DNA from: a virus
Taxonomy: Duplodnaviria; Caudoviricetes
Direction: 5' to 3' (one strand)
Length of the DNA stretch: 36,178 nucleotides
Virus record (IMG/VR): IMGVR_UViG_3300005805_000231
Location: 1-36,178 of that record
Position numbers and translations under genes: made by a program. Positions 13,680 to 34,595 of the stretch are shown here, in pieces (the first letter of the stretch is position 1; the number at the start of each line of letters is the position of its first letter). A model generated the notes under the pieces. That model saw only the letters and a program-made list of their open reading frames with translations, was not told the origin of the DNA and did no database searches.

Positions 13680-14348
13680 TTACGCGATTGCCAAGTTGTT
13701 ACCGTAGCTAAAGCCAAACTTGTTGTGCCTTGCTCTCCACTCAATTGTGGGCTGTTTTATGCCCGTTGCTTCAGCAGCAGCTTTGGCAGTTACAAAATAT
13801 CCTTGCGGCGTTGTAACACCCATTGCCTTGTAGTGATTTGCACCGCCAATAGCCGCGCTTATCTTGGCCTTAACTTCCGGCCTGTGCATGGGATTTTTTT
13901 CGCCACGCGACCATTCATGCGGCTTTCCCATATGCGCTTTGGAAATTTTGTCGCGCACTTCTTGAGTCATTTCTTTTCCAAGATTTCCAGCCCTTACGTT
14001 TTCACGGCCAGTGCCAATAAACACGTTGCCGACTTCATAGGGACCAATATCACCGTTTCGGCACATACAAAATTTGTCTGCACCACGGCCACGCTGGTCC
14101 AGCTTGCCGGATTCAGTCCAAATGGATAACCATTGCTCAAATGAAAGCAAAAATGGTATGCCACGGGCCAAAGCATTTTGTTCTTGCATTTTGTATTTGT
14201 TTGTCAATGTTGTCCGGCGTTTCCCCGCAGCAGCGTTTCTTGCTGGCCTTTGGCATTCACGGCAAACCCGTCGATACAGTCCATTGTCCTTTCTAAATTC
14301 AAATGCCGATAGTTCTTTTTCTATTCCGCATGTTTTGCAAGTTTGCAT
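13680..14348 (-). CDS. Free-standing homing endonuclease (His-Me finger-like core, NUMOD3 repeats)
   Basis: N-terminal CxxC..CxxC; A..RGI.F.LSFEQW...M.R.GD.GPY...NV.I.T..EN; EVRDKISKAHMGK and GEKNPM..EVKAKIS motifs. Lower GC than neighbours. Confidence 0.7.
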   Translation of the reverse strand: MQTCKTCGIEKELSAFEFRKDNGLYRRVCRECQRPARNAAAGKRRTTLTNKYKMQEQNALARGIPFLLSFEQWLSIWTESGKLDQRGRGADKFCMCRNGDIGPYEVGNVFIGTGRENVRAGNLGKEMTQEVRDKISKAHMGKPHEWSRGEKNPMHRPEVKAKISAAIGGANHYKAMGVTTPQGYFVTAKAAAEATGIKQPTIEWRARHNKFGFSYGNNLAIA

Positions 14349-18632: not shown

Positions 18633-20231
18633 CTAATCATTCATCATTGCAGCGCCGGTTGCGCCGCCAAGGCTTGCACGACGACGAAGCGCCTCTTGCA
18701 ACGCATCCTGATACTTGTACCCGCCAAGCAGCGCCCTTTGTGCTGTTCTTGAATAAAGCGGGCCGCCAAAAGTCATTGCGGCGCCTGCGCCTAATGCGGT
18801 TTTTACTGGACTTTTTATTGCTGAACTAATTAAGCCAAATTCAGCAAGCCTGTCAGCAGTGCCGCTATTTGGCGTGCGTGATTTCAAGATTGCTGCGGGA
18901 TCAGTCAAGTCCTGCATGAACGCGGTGCCGCGACCATAATCATCGCCCTTTGACATTGCCTTGACCGCTCTTGTCAACTGCGATGGCGTGACCTCACCCG
19001 AGTCGCTGTACTTGCTTGCCCTTGCAATGCGCTTATAGGCCGCATAAGCCTTGTCTGTATCCTCAAGCTGCTGAGCCAAAGCAGGAGGAATTTGTCTGTT
19101 TCTGTACTGAGTCAGACTGTCTTCAATAGCAGTCAGGATTCGGCGTTCAGCCAGCGCCTCTGTACCCTGCATGCCAGCAAGATCACGAATGCGGCGGCTG
19201 ATTTCAGAATCAAACGACTTATACGCATCACCGGGGATGAACGCGCCAATTTGATTTGGGCCTTGCTGGAATTTCTTGAAGAAGTTGTTGTCAACAAACT
19301 CAAGAATTCCGTCAACAGTTTCTCTGCTTGCCCTGTAGTTTGGATTGAGCGCGGCAGACAGAATTTCCTGCTCAAACTTCTGATCAGGTTTGAACACCAT
19401 CATGTCAAGAGGCGCGTAAGCCTTCTTGAACTGCTTGCCTAGTTCATCAACGCCTTCGCGAGAAACTGTCTGTGTGACACCGCCAGGAGCAACCGCTCGA
19501 TCAAATGCTTTTTGAACAAGTTCACCCTGCGGCCTTTGCCGAGCAGAGGTAATGATTTCACCGAGAACAGGAGAACTTTGCAGCGCCTCTTCTGCTTTGG
19601 CAATACGACCACCAATAAACGACCCGCGATCAACGCCTTGCCCGATTGTTGGCTGAACGCCCTCGCGCATTAACGTCTTTGCTTGTTCAGAAGGATTAAT
19701 AGGGCCACCCAAAAGTTTCCCAGCGCCGCGGACAACGCCTTGGCCGATAAGACTTCCAATCGCGCCCTCTTTGGCAGCCTTCGCGCGATCTTCAGTTGCA
19801 AACGCGGCGGACAAGGCGGCATCAGAAGCGACGTTAGCTCCAACACCGGTCAATGTTTGAAGTGCTTTTGGAAGCATGGGGAGAACTTTGCTACCAACTT
19901 TGGCAGCGGCAGTTCCCGGCACCAAAAACATACTTGTTTCTGCGCCTATCTCGCCAACCTTCCCGGCTGTCCCAAGTTTTTCTTTTTCCTTCTTCCACCA
20001 ATTAAGTTCTTCTTGCTCATCAGGCGTCAATTCACCGCCTGGGAACATGGATCGAACACCAAGATAGGCTTGACGAGCGGCCCCGCCAGCGCCGACTAGG
20101 CCACGCTCTAATGCGCTCATCTCATCGGCCGGGCTTAACTGCGTCGGCTGCGGCTCGGCACTTGCTTGAGCCGCCCGCGCACGCGCACGCGCCATTGCAA
20201 GAGCGCGCTGTTGCTCTACGGTCATTTCCAT
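18633..20231 (-). CDS. Putative internal virion/ejection protein (large)
   Basis: Ala/Gly-rich helical protein with PNSGTA motif, in the position of podovirus DNA-ejection genes. Start 20231 or 20225. Confidence 0.65.
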   Translation of the reverse strand: MEMTVEQQRALAMARARARAAQASAEPQPTQLSPADEMSALERGLVGAGGAARQAYLGVRSMFPGGELTPDEQEELNWWKKEKEKLGTAGKVGEIGAETSMFLVPGTAAAKVGSKVLPMLPKALQTLTGVGANVASDAALSAAFATEDRAKAAKEGAIGSLIGQGVVRGAGKLLGGPINPSEQAKTLMREGVQPTIGQGVDRGSFIGGRIAKAEEALQSSPVLGEIITSARQRPQGELVQKAFDRAVAPGGVTQTVSREGVDELGKQFKKAYAPLDMMVFKPDQKFEQEILSAALNPNYRASRETVDGILEFVDNNFFKKFQQGPNQIGAFIPGDAYKSFDSEISRRIRDLAGMQGTEALAERRILTAIEDSLTQYRNRQIPPALAQQLEDTDKAYAAYKRIARASKYSDSGEVTPSQLTRAVKAMSKGDDYGRGTAFMQDLTDPAAILKSRTPNSGTADRLAEFGLISSAIKSPVKTALGAGAAMTFGGPLYSRTAQRALLGGYKYQDALQEALRRRASLGGATGAAMMND

Positions 20232-21397
20232 AACGCCCGCTCCTCCGGAGTCATATGTCTCCAAAGTTGAGGATCAACGCCGGGGGGCGGCATGTCGGAA
20301 GTAGACGTTTGATTGCCTTCGCCTCCGGCAACAATGTCTTGATTTAAGTGCTTGTACTTTTCTTGCAAAGAACGTAGCGCCTGAAGTGCGGCCATTCTTT
20401 CATTTACAGGGACTGTTCGATCACCAACTTTGGCAGCCATTTCCTTGTAGTTTTGCACGTCATAGTTTGACTGCGGACCTTCCATGCGAGGCACATTGGA
20501 AACTAACCATCCAGAAATGGTTTCAAGTTCAGCGGCTTTTGTTGCGCTTTCAGAGCTATACCCAACAACCCGCCCAAGAGCATCAACAGCAGAACCAACT
20601 CCACTTCCTGTCGGTCCTTGTTTTAATATGCCTTCCGCTTGATTGATTACGCTAAACAACTGATTGCTGCGGTTAATAGCGCCCTTTGCTTCTGCCTCGG
20701 ACTTGGCTCCCAACCCGCCGCGAGCCTTTGCTTCTGCAATACTGCCTTGCAACGCAGGGTCAGACGCTGATCCAACAACAGGCTTTCCATCTACCAAAAT
20801 TGGTGTAAGTACATTGGTTCGCGTATTAAATCCGTAAACGCCTTGCCCTGTTTGCACCGGCATGAAATAAGGCGAAGCACCAGACCCTCTAAGTTGAGCA
20901 AGTTCTCGACGCAAATCTGCTTGTTGATTAGCAAGGGTTTTCTTTTGCTCAAGTTCGCGCTGCTGCTGCGCTTGAGAAAACTCTTGCCGATCCGCAATCT
21001 CAGCCTCTCGAGACAACCTTGCGATCTGTGCTTTTGCACGATTCTCAGGCGACATCGCCATTGCGCGCTTTAAGAAGTGAGCCTGCACAGGAGCGTATTG
21101 CTCTCCTGCGTACCCAGCAGCAAGCGCATTCAACAGCGACATTCCACTATCTTCACCAGCGCCCTGACCTTCAAGCTCTGCAATCTGCTGACGCAAACGA
21201 AGCGAACGCGGCATTGTTGCCTGCATCGAATCCATCGCCAACGGCAACGCTCGCTGCGGTGCTGATTGCGGAGCAGGTTGAGGCGCTGCGGCAGGCATTT
21301 GCTGCGGCGTCATGTAAAGGCGCAGCCTTTCCTCTTCTTCAGGCGTCAGCGGACGCCCCTGAATCTGAGGATTCGGAACCGGGTACACGGTTGCCAT
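20222..21397 (-). CDS. Putative DNA transfer/ejection protein
   Basis: Coiled-coil; VPRMEGPQS..D motif; position in the ejection module. Confidence 0.65.
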   Translation of the reverse strand: MATVYPVPNPQIQGRPLTPEEEERLRLYMTPQQMPAAAPQPAPQSAPQRALPLAMDSMQATMPRSLRLRQQIAELEGQGAGEDSGMSLLNALAAGYAGEQYAPVQAHFLKRAMAMSPENRAKAQIARLSREAEIADRQEFSQAQQQRELEQKKTLANQQADLRRELAQLRGSGASPYFMPVQTGQGVYGFNTRTNVLTPILVDGKPVVGSASDPALQGSIAEAKARGGLGAKSEAEAKGAINRSNQLFSVINQAEGILKQGPTGSGVGSAVDALGRVVGYSSESATKAAELETISGWLVSNVPRMEGPQSNYDVQNYKEMAAKVGDRTVPVNERMAALQALRSLQEKYKHLNQDIVAGGEGNQTSTSDMPPPGVDPQLWRHMTPEERALWK

Positions 21398-21745: not shown

Positions 21746-23038
21746 TCACAACTCCGAATAGTTGACCATCAGGTAGCCATTGGCGTGACGCTTGACTAGA
21801 TCAGGTCGCACCTTCTGCACCTCTTGCGCCATCACGCCAACCTGGCGCTGGCCGAACATCGTGTACTCATACACACCAACGCCAATCGGGTGACCACCCA
21901 CTTTGACGATGTTGGACTTCAGACGACGGTCAGAGAACATGAACGCGGCGCTGCCCAACTGCGCCGCACTACCGAGCAGGTTGTTAAAGCCTGCCTGCTG
22001 GGCGTTGTACGCGCCGAGCTGCGCGTCATAGCCCATCTGCGTTGCGCCAAGGATGTTTGGCGTCTCAGCCCGACCAGCTTGCACAAACGAAGGCATCTGC
22101 GGCATCTGAACCTGCTGGCCGCTCAATAGCGCATTCATCTCGTTAAGCGACATGCCGCGACGCTGCGCCTCTTCAGCAATCGCCTGCTGACGCAGTTGAT
22201 TCTGATAGTTGGCGTATTGCTGGTTGAGAGACTGCTGCTGCGCAAGGGCCGCATTCTGAGCGGCAAGGTTGGCTTGATCCAACGACGCAGCCTGACCCAG
22301 TGCCTGATTCTGAAACTGCGCCGCGCCGAGGTTTTGCTGGTAGCCAGCCTGCGCGGTCCCCATCTGCATGTTGTACAGACGCTGCGCCTCGGCACCTGAC
22401 GCATCCAGCGCGTTGAAACGCTCGGCGGCTTGACGCTGGCCCAACTCGGTCAGAGCGCGGTTGTATGCTTCAGACCCTTGAACAAACCCCTGATTGGCAA
22501 GTTTTGTCTCAAGTTGCCGCTGCTGATAGTCATGCACCGGCTGCATCTTTTGCATCAGTTGCGTTGCCACCGTGTCTCGGTAGCTCGAGTCAAACTGAGG
22601 CAATGAAGACCCAAAATTGAACTCTGTTGCAAGACCAGGCGTGTAGTCAGTCAACCCAGTGCCCAACTGCGCCGGCGCATTCAACTCTGCCATCTGAGGC
22701 AAGCCTGCGTAATCAAACGGCTGGCCATACTCGTTTGTCACACGATCCATAAAGCCGCTCGCCAATTGGCTGCGGCCTAATTGCGTAGACAATTGCGCAT
22801 CAAGTGCGGATTGCAAGCCCGGCGCAAGGGTTGTGTTTTGCGTCCACTGCGTGACTTTGTCACCAGTTGACGGGTCAGTAATCCCTTGCGTGCCCCACGT
22901 CTGTGAACCAAACGGTGTATTGATTACCGGCCGATTGGCATAGTTCTGCATATTGAGAGCTTCTTTTGAAAGCTCTCCTTGCAGTTGTGCTGCGCCGACG
23001 TAATCAGGCGTGGCTGGTGCGCTTCCCTTGCCGCCCAT
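21746..23038 (-). CDS. Gln/Ala-rich virion protein with C-terminal intramolecular chaperone/auto-processing (peptidase S74) domain
   Basis: MGGKG...P.PDY start with AAGGAG RBS; FSDRRLK...VYEY...GVMAQEV..V.PDLV...GYLMVNY. Confidence 0.8.
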   Translation of the reverse strand: MGGKGSAPATPDYVGAAQLQGELSKEALNMQNYANRPVINTPFGSQTWGTQGITDPSTGDKVTQWTQNTTLAPGLQSALDAQLSTQLGRSQLASGFMDRVTNEYGQPFDYAGLPQMAELNAPAQLGTGLTDYTPGLATEFNFGSSLPQFDSSYRDTVATQLMQKMQPVHDYQQRQLETKLANQGFVQGSEAYNRALTELGQRQAAERFNALDASGAEAQRLYNMQMGTAQAGYQQNLGAAQFQNQALGQAASLDQANLAAQNAALAQQQSLNQQYANYQNQLRQQAIAEEAQRRGMSLNEMNALLSGQQVQMPQMPSFVQAGRAETPNILGATQMGYDAQLGAYNAQQAGFNNLLGSAAQLGSAAFMFSDRRLKSNIVKVGGHPIGVGVYEYTMFGQRQVGVMAQEVQKVRPDLVKRHANGYLMVNYSEL

Positions 23039-23444
23039 GAGCGTTCTCCTTGAGCCAGCGGCACTCGTCCGCCCGCATTTCAAACATGTAGCAATCCACC
23101 GTCTCAGCGATTCGACGGAAACCTAATTTCTCGTTCATGTTTAGTGCGTCAGGCAAATCCTTGGGCGTCAGTCCGTAGACTGCCTCAACGCCAACCGTCA
23201 CGAACGGGTACTCAAACGCGGCGCGCCACAACTGCCGCGTCAGCGAATGCGGACTATCAAACGCAACGTGCATCCAGCAACTTGAGTGCGTCCAAGCATT
23301 AAACCCAACCGCGCAGGCAATCGACCCGTCATCGCGCATCGAGGCAATCGTGCGCAAGTCAGTGCTCCACGGCAGGCGCGTGTGTTTGTTCATCCAGCGC
23401 CAGATGACCGGGTACTGCTCAGACTGATCGGTCACAAGTTTCAT
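23004..23444 (-). CDS. GNAT (RimJ/L-like) acetyltransferase in the virion module
   Basis: F.YPF...GV..V.G...AL.MNEKLGF motif; position equivalent to P22 gp14 / T7 gp13. Confidence 0.75.
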   Translation of the reverse strand: MKLVTDQSEQYPVIWRWMNKHTRLPWSTDLRTIASMRDDGSIACAVGFNAWTHSSCWMHVAFDSPHSLTRQLWRAAFEYPFVTVGVEAVYGLTPKDLPDALNMNEKLGFRRIAETVDCYMFEMRADECRWLKENAHGRQGKRTSHA

Positions 23445-24658
23445 GCAAACTCACCACCGATCAAGCCGCTTGGCTCATTTTGCACTTGTACCGTTCCGTC
23501 TTTTGAGACAAAAACCTGGTAGGCATCGTCATTGCTGCCAACATTGATCAGGTACCCATTGTCGTACTCGGCCGCAATCGACGTGGCATTCGGAATACTG
23601 GCAAGAGTCTCCTCGGCCGCCTGCGAATAGCCTGACGGACCAGTCGGACTCGGGCTTGGTGCTGGTTCTTGGTTTGCAGTCTGTCCAGCCAACTGCACCA
23701 AATAAGCCCAATCAGCGTCTGTCTGCGGGCCGTAATCCTGCGACGCAGCCCATCGAATTTGCTCATCGGTGTAGCCGGCGTCCAGCATGTCCTGATATGC
23801 GGCAGCCTTATCGTCCGCAGTCTTCAAGTCATTAGGCAACGCATTTAGAGCGGTCAAATACGACCAGTCGTCATTTGTCTGTTGACCAAACTGCTGATTT
23901 GCGGCGGCGCGAATTTCAGCATCGGTGTAGCCAGAGTCAATAAGGCCGCCGTAATAATCAGCCTTCTGAACTGGAGTCTGATTACCGCTAGGCATCTGAT
24001 TGCCTGCTTGGTCAAAGTAGTACATATTCGACGCCAGCATCGTGTTCTTATTGCCAGGACTCAATGCAGGCGGTCTGTACGACAACGTCTCTGGCGTGGA
24101 AAGACCGCCACTCCCAACTGACGTGAAATCAATCGGAGCACTGTTTGCTTTGTTGGCGCGCAATGTCACGCCTGGCGCTTGAGTCGCCTCTGGACTTGCT
24201 TCCCGCAGCGACTTAATTAGGCTTGACTGATAAACCCCGTCAGGCGTTCCAACGCGCCAGTTGCCTGCCCCAGTATCAACTGGGACACTTTGAAGGCCAG
24301 ACGCCAAACCAGTCAAATAGCTCCAGTCGGCATCAGTCTGCTGACCAAATTCCTGATTGGCAGCATCGCGAATCTGCTGATCTGTATAACCAGAACCAAT
24401 CAGACTGTTGTAGCTGTTCGCCTTGTCTTGCGCCGTGCTGCCACCAGTCAACCCACCAAAGTCAATCGGCCGCGAGTAGTACGTCGAATCCGCAGGGCCA
24501 GCAGAAATTCCTGTGGACTGCTCATCAGCAGTCAACGTCGGTGACGGGTTGAAGTAGTTGTCCCAGAACGCAGCATCTGACGTGTCTGGATAAATCCAGC
24601 CAACCGCGCCATGCAACTGATTTGCTTGGGCCTGCTGATCAGCAGTCAGTTCAGCCAT
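23441..24658 (-). CDS. Hypothetical acidic protein with three ~47-aa repeats
   Basis: T..(D/Q)KA..Y..(L/M)...GYTD..IR.AA.Q.(F/Y)G.QT..DW.YL..L occurs three times; coupled to both neighbours. Confidence 0.75.
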   Translation of the reverse strand: MAELTADQQAQANQLHGAVGWIYPDTSDAAFWDNYFNPSPTLTADEQSTGISAGPADSTYYSRPIDFGGLTGGSTAQDKANSYNSLIGSGYTDQQIRDAANQEFGQQTDADWSYLTGLASGLQSVPVDTGAGNWRVGTPDGVYQSSLIKSLREASPEATQAPGVTLRANKANSAPIDFTSVGSGGLSTPETLSYRPPALSPGNKNTMLASNMYYFDQAGNQMPSGNQTPVQKADYYGGLIDSGYTDAEIRAAANQQFGQQTNDDWSYLTALNALPNDLKTADDKAAAYQDMLDAGYTDEQIRWAASQDYGPQTDADWAYLVQLAGQTANQEPAPSPSPTGPSGYSQAAEETLASIPNATSIAAEYDNGYLINVGSNDDAYQVFVSKDGTVQVQNEPSGLIGGEFA

Positions 24659-26291: not shown

Positions 26292-26750
26292 TCAGACCCA
26301 GGCACGGTTGAATTTGATGTGCCCGATCATTCCTTCGGTAACACCAAACGTTCTACCAAGATCGGCGCGGGTGGCGCCTTCTGCTAACAAACTTTTAATT
26401 CTCCGAACTTGTTCGACGCTTAATTTTGCGCTAGGGTTTTTTTCGCCGTGATTGTTATATCGGCCCTTCCTGGCGCGGTCTGCCATATTTTCTGCATGCG
26501 TACCAAGAAACAAATGGTCAACATTGATGCAAGCTGGGTTGTCACAAGAATGGCAAACGCACATCATTGGCGGGATATCGCCGTGATGTTTTTTCCAAAC
26601 TTCTCTATGTACGCGAGGGTATTTGTTATCCTTGCCAATTCGCCCGTAGCCACATCTATCAAGCGTTCCTGTAAAAATATGGCACCCGTTTGATTGAACA
26701 TAGGTGTGAAACGCAACACGATCCCAATACGGAGCTTTTCTGGAAATCAA
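26292..26750 (-). CDS. HNH homing endonuclease
   Basis: GYG.I...VHR..W...G.IP....VCHSCDNPACIN.DHL.LGT..EN..D...KGR, GEKNPSAKL and C-terminal HTH. Lower GC than neighbours. Confidence 0.9.
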   Translation of the reverse strand: MISRKAPYWDRVAFHTYVQSNGCHIFTGTLDRCGYGRIGKDNKYPRVHREVWKKHHGDIPPMMCVCHSCDNPACINVDHLFLGTHAENMADRARKGRYNNHGEKNPSAKLSVEQVRRIKSLLAEGATRADLGRTFGVTEGMIGHIKFNRAWV

Positions 26751-30705: not shown

Positions 30706-31023
30706 TTATCGCCTTTGTAGTTGTGAAATCGCGCGCTCAATGTCACGCCGACTGAACGTGCCGCCACTCTGCCGGTAACGGTCACGCTGCTCTTGCGCCT
30801 TGGACCACGTCTCTTTGAAGTCGTCCACGGTCGCCAGATTGTTCAACTTCATGTATTCGCGGTGCTTGGCCCGCGTACTGATGTCGGTGCCGTCAGTCGC
30901 GCGCAGCCCGTCATAGCTGCGATCGCCCCACAACGCGCCCGAGTCGTTGTGATGCTGTGGCTGGTAGTCGTCAGTGATCTCGACCAGTTCGCCATTGATC
31001 TGGACGTAGCGGCGGCGTGTCAT
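30706..31023 (-). CDS. Conserved hypothetical protein, 105 aa
   Basis: GAGG RBS; DGT.I.TR.KHREYMK.NNL motif seen between portal and scaffold in related phages. Confidence 0.75.
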   Translation of the reverse strand: MTRRRYVQINGELVEITDDYQPQHHNDSGALWGDRSYDGLRATDGTDISTRAKHREYMKLNNLATVDDFKETWSKAQEQRDRYRQSGGTFSRRDIERAISQLQRR

Positions 31024-31040
31024 GTTGTGGTATCCTCAAC
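31024..31040 (+). promoter_or_regulatory. Extended -10 promoter inside a 17-bp operator-like palindrome
   Basis: GTTGTG-GTATC-CTCAAC contains TG-G-TATCCT; AAGGAG RBS at 31045-31050 follows. Confidence 0.5.
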
Positions 31041-31056
31041 ATCAAAGGAGAATGAC

Positions 31057-31260
31057 ATGCACGAAGTCATTGTGATCGTTGACAACCGCGTCGTCCGCGC
31101 GCCGCGCAAGGTCTGGTCGGCCATGCTTGAGGCGGCATCTTTAATGATCGACACAGGCGACATGTATCCCCACTTAGAGAGCAAACTTGGCGTCAAGACA
31201 CTTGACGCCGTGAAGCAACTCAAAATCGACCTGGACGATCAAAACTGCTCTTCCTCTTGA
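31057..31260 (+). CDS. 67-aa protein antisense to the late operon; candidate immunity/antitoxin
   Basis: AAGGAG RBS 6 nt before ATG 31057; fills the gap between two late genes; converges on and overlaps the 3' end of 31239..32618. Confidence 0.6.
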   Translation: MHEVIVIVDNRVVRAPRKVWSAMLEAASLMIDTGDMYPHLESKLGVKTLDAVKQLKIDLDDQNCSSS

Positions 31261-32618
31261 CCGCGTAGCGCAGATACAAGGGCAGCGGTTCCGATCCCAG
31301 CGGCGCCAATCCCGTAAAGCGGGTGCGTGCCGCGTACCAGGCTGTCGCGCACAACGTCTTCTGGTTTCTTGCCAGTCACTCGAGCGGTGCGCTCAATAGC
31401 CTCATTGACGTGCTGAATCATCGGCTTGCCAGGCACGCCTTTAAGTCCCTTCCACGTCACGTCTTGAAAGTTGGCCGGCATGACGCCCTCGGCCTTAGCC
31501 AAGTCGTGGATAACCTTTTCAAACACACCGTAAGAGTCACCAGGCGGGACAAGCAAGCCCGGCTTAAACCCGCCGCTCATCTGCTCATCAATCGTTGCGC
31601 GATCGCGGTGGCCTAAGAAGTTCCCCGAAAAATCAAATCGTTTCGGTGTCTTCGTTGCTTGAAGTCCGGCGCCTTTGTTGATGACTTTGTCGTACATCGC
31701 CATATTGCCGGACGCGAAGCGGCCACCAATCGGGTACGGGAACTCATACGCCGCGGTCGGTTGTGCGACGCCTTTTTGCCGCAAAAAATTTCCGTATGCG
31801 GACATCAGCAGATTGGCCGTTGGATCGGCGCCGCCAGTCGTCGCGGCCATCGCATCAGCGAACCGCTCCTTGAACATCTCGCGGCCTTTCTTCTCGCCAA
31901 ACTCCTTGACGAACTCGGCCTCAAGTTGCCCCATCGCGTACCAGTCTTTGGCAAGAGGATCTTTGCTGCCTTCTCTGAACGCTTGGGTCAGTCGCGCGCG
32001 AGCTTCTGGCGTATCGAACTCAGTGACGTACTTATCAATGGTGGCTTGTTTTTTTGGCAGCGCATCAGTAACCGTCCGTCCTTCCAGCGGGTACTTTGAG
32101 GCGTCTGCGTAGAACCGATCCTCAACTTTAAAAAAAGGCGTGTAGTTCCCGGCGTCAATGTCTTTCTGCGCGGCCTTTCTCGCCTTCTCGACTGCCTGCG
32201 CCTCTTCAGAGTTCTGCTTTTGCAAAAACTCTTTCCCGGTTTTCTTATCTTTGGCAAGAACTGGGGGCGCGGTGTCTGGGTAATTTTCCGCAACCTTTTC
32301 CATGTCATAGCCGACATCGGACGGTTTTTTGCGTAACGCCTTTGCTGTCACATCCGACTTGCGCAGCTTATTGATCCCGCGCGTGACACCGCCCACGATC
32401 GGAATCGCCCCCAGGCCAGATAAGCCCATTCCCAGGATGTCTCCCTCGCGCCTGGCACGCTCGAAGTCGCGGCCGGCTTGCGCCGTGCCAACGACAGGCA
32501 AAAACCCGGCACCAATATCCAGCGCGATGTCCGCAAGATCCTGATCCTGCGGTGTGTCTAGCGCCACCATGTTGCTGCCGCGGCGGCGCAACTCGTTGAT
32601 GATTGCTTGCGCGTCCAT
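31239..32618 (-). CDS. Portal-adjacent modular protein: pre-toxin-TG-like N-terminus plus HhH-GPD/DNA-glycosylase-like domain (putative effector)
   Basis: DIGAGFLPVVGTAQAGRDF...G.GL..LGAIPIVG. C-terminal WY, AATT, PK...N..G...TID, Y..E....A...G..PA..Q...W. AAGGA RBS. ORF is solid; function is inferred. Confidence 0.55.
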   Translation of the reverse strand: MDAQAIINELRRRGSNMVALDTPQDQDLADIALDIGAGFLPVVGTAQAGRDFERARREGDILGMGLSGLGAIPIVGGVTRGINKLRKSDVTAKALRKKPSDVGYDMEKVAENYPDTAPPVLAKDKKTGKEFLQKQNSEEAQAVEKARKAAQKDIDAGNYTPFFKVEDRFYADASKYPLEGRTVTDALPKKQATIDKYVTEFDTPEARARLTQAFREGSKDPLAKDWYAMGQLEAEFVKEFGEKKGREMFKERFADAMAATTGGADPTANLLMSAYGNFLRQKGVAQPTAAYEFPYPIGGRFASGNMAMYDKVINKGAGLQATKTPKRFDFSGNFLGHRDRATIDEQMSGGFKPGLLVPPGDSYGVFEKVIHDLAKAEGVMPANFQDVTWKGLKGVPGKPMIQHVNEAIERTARVTGKKPEDVVRDSLVRGTHPLYGIGAAGIGTAALVSALRGQEEEQF

Positions 32619-32627
32619 GACTGTCCT

Positions 32628-34595
32628 TTACTGAACTGGTGGCTGCATTGGCCCCTGCGGCATCGGGCCTTGGGGCATTGCCGGCGGCAGGTTTGGCTGC
32701 GGCTGGTTGATGCCCAGCATGCGCCGAGCAACTGCCAAGTCCATCGCCTGACCCTCGGCCTCAAGGTTCGTTTTCTTGGCCTTTGCCATTCTCTCGGCGG
32801 CGCCGGCCTTTTTCTCTTCAACCTGCGCGATCTGCATTGGGTTGGGCTGCGGCGACTGAATGCCCTGCTGCTTCAGACCCGTGATCGCCTGGTCAAGCAC
32901 TGACTCAATCTGCGTGCTCACGCGGAACTTGCTGACCGCCCACTGCAACATCGACAGCAATACGGGCGCAGCACCTGGCACCTGTTGCGCCATCGGCGCC
33001 ACCTGGGACACGAACGCGCCGAGTCCCTGCATAAACTGCACGGCGCTATCCCTCTCAGCCGCCCAGTCCAGTGCCGCCATCGAGTCCGCTTCGATGTTGA
33101 TCCGGTACTCGGACATCTCTTCATCTTTGAGCAACTGGATCGCCTGCATCGCCAGCGGCGCATCCGGCGTGCGCTCGATGTTGCTGCGCTTGATGATCGT
33201 CTCCGGTTGCCAGTGCTTGCAGATAATCTCGGCCTTGATCCGCAACGCCTGCGAGATCCAGTCAGCGATATAGAACTGCATCAGTTGCACGCGCGTCGAG
33301 CCGAACTGCGCCTTGATCTGCTGCGCCGTTGCAGTCTCGCTGGCCTTGGAGCTACCGCGCATCACGTCCGAGATGCCTAGCACCTCATAGATCTGCATGA
33401 CCTTGTCTTGCCGGTACTGGCGCAACTGGTTGATCGCGTTAACGACCTGCTCGATCGGTGCCCAGTCAACCTGACCCTTGATGCCGCCCTTTTCTGCAAA
33501 GAGTGCCCAGTTATCGACCGGAATCAACTGATTCTCCGCGCCCTGCGAGAACATGCGCTGGATACCGTCAGCACTCTTGTCATACACGCCGACGACCTTG
33601 GCCGCGCGCGTCAGCCAGGTGATGCGGGTATTGATTTCGTCCAACTCATTGAACTGGTCCTGCGCAAAGATGTAGTCTGCGCGGGGCATGAAGTTGGAAC
33701 TGGTGACGTTGGCCGCGACAGGCTTGGGACACGGGAAAAAGTTGTCCAACCCCAGTGGGTCATCCACAACGTCAAGGATCACGTCAGCACCGCGTGCGTA
33801 CCAGTACACCTTGCGGTGGTCTTTGCACCAGATCTCAAAGACTTCAGCCTTGCTCCACGGGTCATGCTTGACGGTCTGGTCATTGACGCTGTCGCTTTGC
33901 TTGCGGTTGCCCAGCGGGACAATCCGCGCAATCTCTTCACCGAACCGCGCCTCGAGTTGGTCCTTGGTCATAAAGACGCGGCGCGCGACCCACCGCACTT
34001 CCGGCCACACCCGCGCCGGCGACCAGTAGAAGTCTTCCCAGTAGACGTAGTCGCAGCAGGCGTCTTCGTCCGTAATCCGCTCGGCCTCCTGCGCTGGGAC
34101 CAGTTCCTCACCCGTCATCGGGTCCAAGACGGCCTCGATCATGTACGGTTCAGTCTCGACCTCATACCGCAGCCAGATCTGACCCAGCCCCACAATCAGC
34201 CAGTCCTCAATCCCCTGCCGGACTGCCGCGTCCCACTCCGAGACATCGTCATCAAAGCCGCGGTTCAGGATGCGCTGCAACATCGTCCCCGCAACCCGCG
34301 CCACGTCATCCTCATAGTCCTGAAACGTGCGGCTCACGTCAGCCTTGGGTGGCCGCGCGTAGAGCATCGAGAGCAGCACCTTCATCGTCGACCAGAACAG
34401 GTTGACTTTTGACTCGTCATGTCCGTACGCGTCACGCTTGTCCAGGTATCGCTGCGTGATCCGGTTCGCGTCCTGGTGAAATTTCAGCAACTCCTGACGC
34501 GACGCCTCAATCTCGGTGCCCCACCGCTGCGCCAGCCCAGCCGGCGAGTTGTCAAAGTCGCTCTCGCTGACTAATTTGCTTTGCGTGTCCATCAT
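32628..34595 (-). CDS. Portal protein
   Basis: 655 aa after terL; N.FWS, W.DF...AR.W.EV.WVAR, EV.EIW.K, FFPCP.P, GISD.MRG...ETATAQ.IK; Pro/Gln tail. Confidence 0.88.
   Translation of the reverse strand: MMDTQSKLVSESDFDNSPAGLAQRWGTEIEASRQELLKFHQDANRITQRYLDKRDAYGHDESKVNLFWSTMKVLLSMLYARPPKADVSRTFQDYEDDVARVAGTMLQRILNRGFDDDVSEWDAAVRQGIEDWLIVGLGQIWLRYEVETEPYMIEAVLDPMTGEELVPAQEAERITDEDACCDYVYWEDFYWSPARVWPEVRWVARRVFMTKDQLEARFGEEIARIVPLGNRKQSDSVNDQTVKHDPWSKAEVFEIWCKDHRKVYWYARGADVILDVVDDPLGLDNFFPCPKPVAANVTSSNFMPRADYIFAQDQFNELDEINTRITWLTRAAKVVGVYDKSADGIQRMFSQGAENQLIPVDNWALFAEKGGIKGQVDWAPIEQVVNAINQLRQYRQDKVMQIYEVLGISDVMRGSSKASETATAQQIKAQFGSTRVQLMQFYIADWISQALRIKAEIICKHWQPETIIKRSNIERTPDAPLAMQAIQLLKDEEMSEYRINIEADSMAALDWAAERDSAVQFMQGLGAFVSQVAPMAQQVPGAAPVLLSMLQWAVSKFRVSTQIESVLDQAITGLKQQGIQSPQPNPMQIAQVEEKKAGAAERMAKAKKTNLEAEGQAMDLAVARRMLGINQPQPNLPPAMPQGPMPQGPMQPPVQ

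Follow-up and report, generated by a model that had tools for sequence, protein, structure and literature searches.

Genes at the portal-adjacent locus

The virus record IMGVR_UViG_3300005805_000231 (Duplodnaviria; Caudoviricetes), taken here over its whole length of 36,178 nucleotides (nt) and referred to as the window, has an estimated completeness of 100 % and carries genes for a tyrosine integrase, a terminase, a portal protein and a major head protein, along with tail and ejection genes of podovirus type. An exchangeable cassette, flanked by the portal gene and a conserved gene for a 105-amino acid (aa) protein, holds a gene for a 459-aa protein and a convergent gene for a 67-aa protein, the two open reading frames (ORFs) overlapping by 22 nt. 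The original prediction, made from the letters alone, described this pair as a toxin-immunity module; the 67-aa gene, its convergence and its overlap are indeed present, and the positions given for the cassette features all hold. Neither protein belongs to a family in Pfam, PHROG, NCBIfam or PADLOC; 685 homologues of the 459-aa protein were found. The features of the locus are:

31024..32640, exchangeable cassette, with the portal and 105-aa genes on either side
31239..32618, minus strand, tagged cargo protein, 459 aa, no cysteine
32349..32618, minus strand, N-terminal tag, approximately aa 1-90, common to unrelated cargos; low predicted local distance difference test score (pLDDT)
32010..32318, minus strand, N-terminal extension of the domain, conserved and folded, aa 101-203; pLDDT above 90
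31419..32009, minus strand, predicted Ogg2-like HhH-GPD core, aa 204-400; VIA and Foldseek matches of the model
31641..31643, minus strand, K326, predicted Schiff-base lysine; invariant in 79/79
31587..31589, minus strand, D344, predicted catalytic aspartate; invariant in 79/79
31452..31466, minus strand, Q385-x3-W389, predicted base-binding helix; both residues invariant
31242..31310, minus strand, Gly/Ala-rich hydrophobic tail with an acidic end, aa 437-459; similar tails on several unrelated cargos
31057..31260, plus strand, 67-aa convergent gene; beta-hairpin and three helices, invariant D-x-G-D
31022..31050, plus strand, putative promoter region of the small gene; overlaps the opposite-strand ribosome-binding site (RBS) of the 105-aa gene
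32628..34595, minus strand, portal gene, upstream flank; phrog_12082, E 2e-167
30706..31023, minus strand, conserved 105-aa gene, downstream flank; conserved synteny

The bounds of the cassette follow from comparison with the locus L119, in which the portal and 105-aa proteins are 99 % identical to those of the window and the slot is filled by an unrelated 147-aa gene: DNA identity between the two ends at 31023 and restarts at 32641. No convincing family match was obtained for the 105-aa gene in Pfam or PHROG. The 459-aa gene adjoins the portal gene as originally described, but the 105-aa gene separates the cassette from the 371-aa scaffold-like gene, which is named from its position only. The further proposal that the 67-aa gene is the sole plus-strand gene that can be supported in the late operon was checked in six intergenic gaps; of the ORFs starting with ATG there, no other has a clear RBS.

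One tag, many cargos and a predicted DNA glycosylase

The slot was surveyed with the first 85 residues of the 459-aa protein and the 105-aa gene as queries, which yielded 99 complete tagged ORFs; the 50 distinct proteins among them fall into 11 cargo clusters. The cargos found on the tag include ART-PolyVal, GNAT plus ART-PolyVal, a DUF7178 protein and an SLT fusion, and one protein (P0162) carries a different cargo of 735 aa behind a tag 96 % identical to that of the window. Cargo types are scattered almost at random over the head-gene tree: 19 label changes are counted on the flanking-gene tree (39 rows) vs 20.3 after shuffling, and the cargo type of the window alone accounts for 11 changes, at least 7 of them forced. 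The swapping of cargos behind a shared, portal-adjacent N-terminus had been anticipated in the original prediction, although as a C-terminal toxin; the layout is instead tag, cargo, tail. The tag accommodates unrelated cargos of about 200 to 700 residues; it is a candidate packaging signal, and a role in packaging or ejection appears likely. It is not the pre-toxin segment PT-TG, as had been proposed: the profile PF14449 matched 0 of the 18 N-terminal segments at E<=10 and nothing in the record; only weak, sub-cut-off matches to DUF4112 were seen. The term 'PT-TG' does not occur in the first 300,000 characters of PMC3482391.

The domain is not confined to the tag. It also occurs on other N-termini, SLT fusions with lengths of 855 and 911 aa among them; such fusions of the domain with SLT are present in the loci L028 and L080, and a viral protein annotated as SleB is matched as well. 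When the window cargo was compared with the other cargos by hhalign after removal of tag and tail (9 comparisons), a link was obtained to cluster 5 (prob 73, E 3e-5) and a weak one to the L114 cargo (E 9e-4), the remaining 7 being not significant; the HhH-like look of clusters 1, 2 and 3 comes from motifs read by eye only. The best language-model look-alike is DUF7178 (PF23802; score 0.92), a family present on 22-52 % of cluster members. The L114 cargo, which sits on the same tag, passes the PF23802 cut-off and has its last motif in common with the domain (the hhalign match just given); the window protein itself has no PF23802 match, the likeness is a distant one, and a literature search retrieved no paper naming DUF7178. 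As to hosts, the domain was found on one Pseudomonadota contig of a metagenome-assembled genome (MAG), and cluster members of one sister cargo are filed under Betaproteobacteria and Caulobacteraceae MAGs. Among the sequencing runs listed as matching, none was of RNA.

Several slot variants were encountered in the course of the survey. Two proteins (P0159, P0161) carry two tag-cargo units in tandem, P0161 with GNAT and a weak match resembling RelA_SpoT (E 0.15). Another cargo has in-frame internal deletions in P0182 and P0198; these, like the loss of about aa 237-406 of the cargo with a frameshift and an intact small gene (L121:3989-4952), may be natural short forms or assembly errors. Close relatives (L123:3071-3433, L131, L133) have a DUF5856 gene in the slot instead of a tagged cargo, and in L116, L117 and L161 the tagged gene is positioned after, not before, the 105-aa gene.

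The structure model of the 459-aa protein is confident over aa 101-435 and poor in the tag and the tail. In the wide structural search with VIA, the best match was the Thermotoga glycosylase TmOgg (3n0u; Z 10.0, root-mean-square deviation 3.5, 177 residues aligned over aa 204-400), with ranks 1-21 occupied exclusively by DNA glycosylases or the queuine-salvage enzyme DUF2419; Foldseek also placed 3n0u first (E 8.9e-3, prob 1.00). Searches of solved structures by sequence profile, run with two alignments, found nothing. The modelled domain has the all-helical, two-lobe architecture of the HhH-GPD fold, and K326, D344, Q346, Q385 and W389 are all invariant in 79 aligned sequences. The lysine and aspartate that had been singled out as lying exactly 18 residues apart are K326 and D344, which correspond to the dyad of bifunctional HhH-GPD enzymes with the spacing of K122/D140 in AfOgg1; the HhH-GPD assignment is thus borne out by both structural searches and by conservation. 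On the lysine, PMC9638937 offers general chemistry only. The stretch of residues 101-200, previously taken for a lysine-rich linker, is conserved and modelled as part of the domain, with P114, K134, E139, P161, F163 and R168 invariant in the extension.

The Q385/W389 pattern resembles Q315/F319 of hOGG1, W189 of AfOgg1 and D184/W188 of Dag1, an equivalence drawn from spacing and not from residue-level superposition, and from its likeness to the hOGG1 and Dag1 pairs we infer that the substrate would be a guanine-type base. The closest solved folds being 8-oxoguanine (8-oxoG) glycosylases, and the best-matching sequencing runs being lake and aquatic metagenomes, the domain could be thought to repair 8-oxoG in the DNA that the phage itself brings in, and the small protein would then act as a cofactor or regulator. 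According to the available text on AfOgg1 (PMC13490550), however, this enzyme uses K122/D140, H142 and W189, and Ogg2 proteins tell 8-oxoG from G by the carboxylate at the extreme C-terminus, whereas here the alignment ends at aa 400 of 459 and the chain runs on for 59 residues. With the same dyad spacing, a Gln at Asp+2 and these 59 residues past the aligned end, canonical reading of 8-oxoG is unlikely. Moreover, in other phages the slot is taken by ART or GNAT cargos, and in close relatives it may hold no tagged gene, a pattern that fits conflict and not housekeeping. We regard repair as very improbable.

The convergent small gene and its counterparts

The small gene is preceded by an extended -10 element, TGGTATCCT (TG-G-TATCCT), at 31028-31036, an RBS, AAAGGAG, at 31044-31050, and an inverted repeat, ATGTTG-N9-CAACAT, at 31022-31042. 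All three had been pointed out in the original prediction. The -10 recurs in relatives, with a perfect TGcTATAAT in L066, L073, L077 and L078. No match to it was found upstream of the small gene in L030, L035, L059 and L064, and a two-hexamer sigma-70 scan returned no promoter at the small gene. The palindrome is weak evidence, and its reading as an operator is unsupported by the count of GTTG-N9-CAAC in the window (2 vs 0.87 expected by chance); its 4-bp arms are kept in many, not all, slot relatives and overlap the RBS of the 105-aa gene. Ratios of nonsynonymous to synonymous substitution of 0.035-0.24 were obtained in 13 of 14 pairs of small genes, one pair being saturated (56 codons around the conserved motif), and on these codon comparisons the gene is under purifying selection.

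Fold searches with the small protein gave no informative match (best Z 5.4, among generic helical matches), and no atlas match was obtained either. Its profile finds 25 representatives, 2 of which are long repetitive proteins. Prediction of a complex between aa 99-437 of the larger protein and the small protein scored 0.01, in a run in which the controls did not fold. In P0145, a homologue of the 67-aa protein follows an HTH_3 domain (E 6e-10) within one chain, an arrangement reminiscent of antitoxins; no viral contig or locus was found for this fusion.

The association of the small gene with the domain is close. It was identified at 43 domain loci by tblastn and at 4 more by reading of ORFs, which makes 47 of 80 (1 further locus is cut), and 64 of 65 loci fetched with the small-gene profile, from partly redundant records, have it facing the domain, the exception ending 61 nt downstream. 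Among tagged proteins, 19 of 20 with the window-type cargo have the small gene, the remaining one being cut 14 nt after the stop, compared with 0 of 30 with other cargos. The small gene also tracks the domain to sites other than the portal slot and to proteins with other N-termini, and distances between domains and between small proteins are correlated (Mantel r 0.78, p 0.0005, 22 rows; partial Mantel 0.38 given the 105-aa gene, 12 rows). The convergent gene therefore co-varies with the cargo, as had been predicted.

Three other cargos have their own, unrelated convergent genes, two of these behind the same type of -10. The cargo of 730-746 aa is accompanied by a convergent ORF of 56-64 aa in 7/7 slot proteins, and about half of these ORFs overlap the cargo end. 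In a further scan, which left out three cut loci and covered 25 complete ones, this ORF was displayed in 12, each with an identity of 69 % or more; the other 13 comprised one that printed another frame, one close relative without the ORF and 11 distant loci not showing it. The cargo of 432-437 aa faces a different ORF of 62 aa in 5 of 7 loci (of the other two, one was not displayed and one lacks it), with the ATG 6-7 nt past the -10 in three loci; the gene is apparently leaderless in L139, L174 and L263, judging from this distance. The cargos paired with this 62-aa gene have no assigned fold and form two related clusters (L139:3510-4980, L174 and the P0193 group). The third partner, an ORF of 58 aa, was seen in one locus only (L114), without a matching -10. 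No convergent gene was seen in clusters 2, 3, 4, 5, 7, 8 and 10. With four matched pairs of cargo and small gene in one slot, the action of MuF-type and polyvalent cargos on entry becomes testable by cross-rescue.

These data bear on a reading in which the domain is a module that binds DNA or acts as a pilot without being toxic, while the small gene either hitch-hikes as a moron or silences leaky cargo expression in lysogens by antisense transcription. The convergent orientation with its 22-nt overlap is compatible with silencing, DNA binding is possible for ejection proteins (as discussed in the accessible text of PMC8954989), and the small protein has no known fold. Such a module does not, however, account for the invariance of K326, D344, Q385 and W389, for selection acting on the small gene at the protein level, or for the absence of the small gene beside other cargos, three of which have different small proteins. 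We consider this reading improbable; the 67-aa product is likely to be a cognate inhibitor of the cargo.

Proposed delivery and action, and relation to known systems

The 459-aa protein shares its lack of cysteine with its relatives: a single cysteine occurs in the 55,080 aa of 120 domain homologues (119 of 120 have none), and 100 of 100 tag homologues are cysteine-free (0 in 57,017 aa), compared with 1.7 % in eight early proteins and 5/655 in the portal. In an injected virion RNA polymerase, the lack of cysteine has been explained by passage through the tail or the periplasm (PMC3715699); the available parts of PMC13434306 and PMC8954989 do not mention 'cysteine'. Since several other late proteins of the window also lack cysteine, we treat this absence as supportive only. 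Taken with the SLT fusions, the ART-PolyVal and GNAT cargos on the same tag and the position in the operon, it points to delivery by the virion. Three more cysteine-free late proteins (23441-24658, 20222-21397 and 18633-20264) are encoded around a DNA-ejection-like gene at 21746-23083 and are candidate ejection proteins. Elsewhere in the window, the late operon is interrupted at 26292-26750 by an HNH endonuclease gene and at 13680-14348 by a NUMOD3 homing-endonuclease-like gene, and the early region contains a GP88/DUF7227-family gene (928-1656).

Presence of the small gene is related to lifestyle in 30 domain-bearing records that were chosen for length and represent few lineages. Of the 16 records that have the small gene, 9 encode a tyrosine integrase and 0 encode PolA; for the 14 that lack it, the corresponding counts are 0 and 12. 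Among records at least 90 % complete, integrase is found in 8 of 10 with the small gene and 0 of 4 without. Because three large fusion proteins without the small gene nest among gene-bearing domains, the phylogeny suggests that the small gene was lost on moving to a lytic-type genome.

We favour, with slightly better than even confidence, the explanation that the cassette encodes, together with a cognate inhibitor for lysogens, a glycosylase/lyase that is injected from the virion and attacks host-side DNA at a guanine-type base. The tag would package the cysteine-free, predicted Ogg2-type glycosylase/apurinic-apyrimidinic lyase, which would enter the cell with the phage genome. There, K326 would attack C1' of a flipped guanine-type nucleotide with the assistance of D344 while W389 stacks on the base, and the outcome would be abasic sites and nicks. 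The target would most probably be a feature of DNA already in the cell, either the host chromosome or a resident element, and not of the phage's own DNA, because PolA phages that lack an integrase carry an intact domain without the inhibitor. A temperate phage has to spare the cell that it lysogenises; hence expression of the inhibitor would depend not on late transcription but on a host-type promoter, used both on entry and in the prophage state. The original interpretation is accordingly upheld in part, for the fold, the cargo swap, the co-varying small gene and the absence of MuF, but not for PT-TG or a C-terminal toxin layout.

Several observations weigh against this explanation. The small gene is absent from 32 of 80 domain loci, and K, D, Q and W are retained in 21 of 21 sampled homologues without it. 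No copy is encoded elsewhere in 23 domain-bearing records without an adjacent small gene, most of them incomplete. As the domain is intact in loci that have no small gene, adjacent or elsewhere, it is not obligatorily self-toxic. The trees of domain and small protein are incompletely congruent, and in L012 the domain groups with that of the window while the small protein is only 51 % identical. The homologous cargo of cluster 5 and the cargos of clusters 2, 3 and 4 have no convergent gene, an integrase-positive record (G031) included. The link to lifestyle rests on few lineages and length-chosen records; two records of 100 % completeness (G008, G012) have the small gene with no integrase found, and two others (G018, G022) have neither small gene, integrase nor PolA. 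The cysteine-free late proteins include ones of 105, 201 and 251 aa, the Z of 10 is moderate for a helical protein and the Foldseek E value exceeds 0.001. Finally, 0 of 50,697 deposited phage records match, so that a cultured phage relative was not found among them.

The retention of an intact domain without the small gene (21 of 21 sampled) also speaks for a weapon resembling Dag1, directed against the 7-deazaguanine-modified DNA of competitors, or for a counter-defence tool, which would leave the host unharmed; the small protein would then be an off-target damper or a kin-exclusion factor by which lysogens disarm the incoming cargo of superinfecting relatives. Dag1 is described as an HhH glycosylase/lyase that cuts modified-guanine phage DNA via K118, D184 and W188, cargo-specific pairing fits such a role equally well, and carriers of the domain would spare their own DNA, no 7-deazaguanine pathway having been found in them (QueC and FolE in 0 of 39 carrier records each). 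The latter absence is common among phages and hence little informative. An enzyme harmless to the host, moreover, would need no partner kept across at least 7 forced cargo swaps, and protection conferred by a few injected copies would be short. We judge this alternative unlikely and retain as our preferred explanation the injected glycosylase with a cognate inhibitor.

A broader claim, which we regard as possible but doubtful, is that the locus belongs to a polymorphic toxin system of a new kind, delivered by phages on a dedicated carrier of tag and tail, in which DNA glycosylases are the commonest weapons, the host chromosome is damaged and cells are spared by an antidote expressed from a host-type promoter. 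If so, cells that destroy the incoming DNA would die, as survival would need the antidote encoded by the phage genome, and lysogens would be immune only to phages with the same cargo, creating cargo-defined immunity groups reshuffled by cassette exchange. What is new here is the carrier, the glycosylase cargo with its cognate partner, and the convergent, separately promoted partners that swap with the cargo; in the literature covered (titles and beginnings of abstracts, few subscription papers and no supplements), a virion-borne HhH glycosylase with a partner gene is not described.

Among known systems, the cassette resembles the MuF toxins (Jamet et al. 2017; PMC5576092) in the position of its gene directly after the portal in a temperate phage and in the combination of a constant N-terminal carrier, a variable cargo and a small adjacent ORF, which in that study accompanies 89.4 % of 191 muf toxin genes. 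Unlike them, it has no MuF domain, a tag precedes the cargo and in most cases a tail follows it, the small gene converges on the cargo gene and is preceded by a -10 of its own, and the cargo has the HhH glycosylase fold; the words 'opposite' and 'promoter' do not occur in the main text of that paper, which leaves orientation and promoters undiscussed. The absence of PF04233 from the record, and of any MuF-type match in Pfam, PHROG and NCBIfam (a comparison that left out the MuF3 and MuF4 profiles), agrees with the earlier claim of a non-MuF effector. With the polyvalent proteins (Iyer et al. 2017; PMC5512222), the locus shares enzymatic cargos with predicted injection from the virion, the occurrence of ART-PolyVal and GNAT behind its tag, fusions of the domain with SLT and the tandem arrangement of P0159 and P0161. 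It differs in that the window protein has a single cargo, relatives with the tag or the domain being multidomain; 'glycosylase' does not occur in the main text of that paper, and cargo-specific convergent partner genes were not seen in the passages covered.

Compared with Ogg2, represented by TmOgg and, from the available text, AfOgg1 (PMC13490550), the domain has the same fold over aa 204-400, Lys and Asp 18 residues apart and an aromatic residue in the last helix, but identity is only 12-18 %, a folded N-terminal extension of about 100 aa is added, Gln replaces His at Asp+2, the chain passes the discriminating C-terminus position and the gene lies in a phage head operon. A further parallel is with Dag1 and Dag2 (bioRxiv 10.1101/2025.10.29.685425), compared here by their description and published after the PADLOC 2023 release, in which the window proteins have no match. 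These are likewise HhH glycosylases of a conflict type with a Lys nucleophile and an x-x3-Trp base-binding pair; they are, however, bacterial integron cassettes expressed in the cell, whereas the window protein is phage-encoded, tagged and paired with a partner. If our preferred explanation is correct, HhH DNA glycosylases would join the weapons injected by phages, mirroring these recently described bacterial defence glycosylases, and the small gene would supply a protein inhibitor of an HhH glycosylase.

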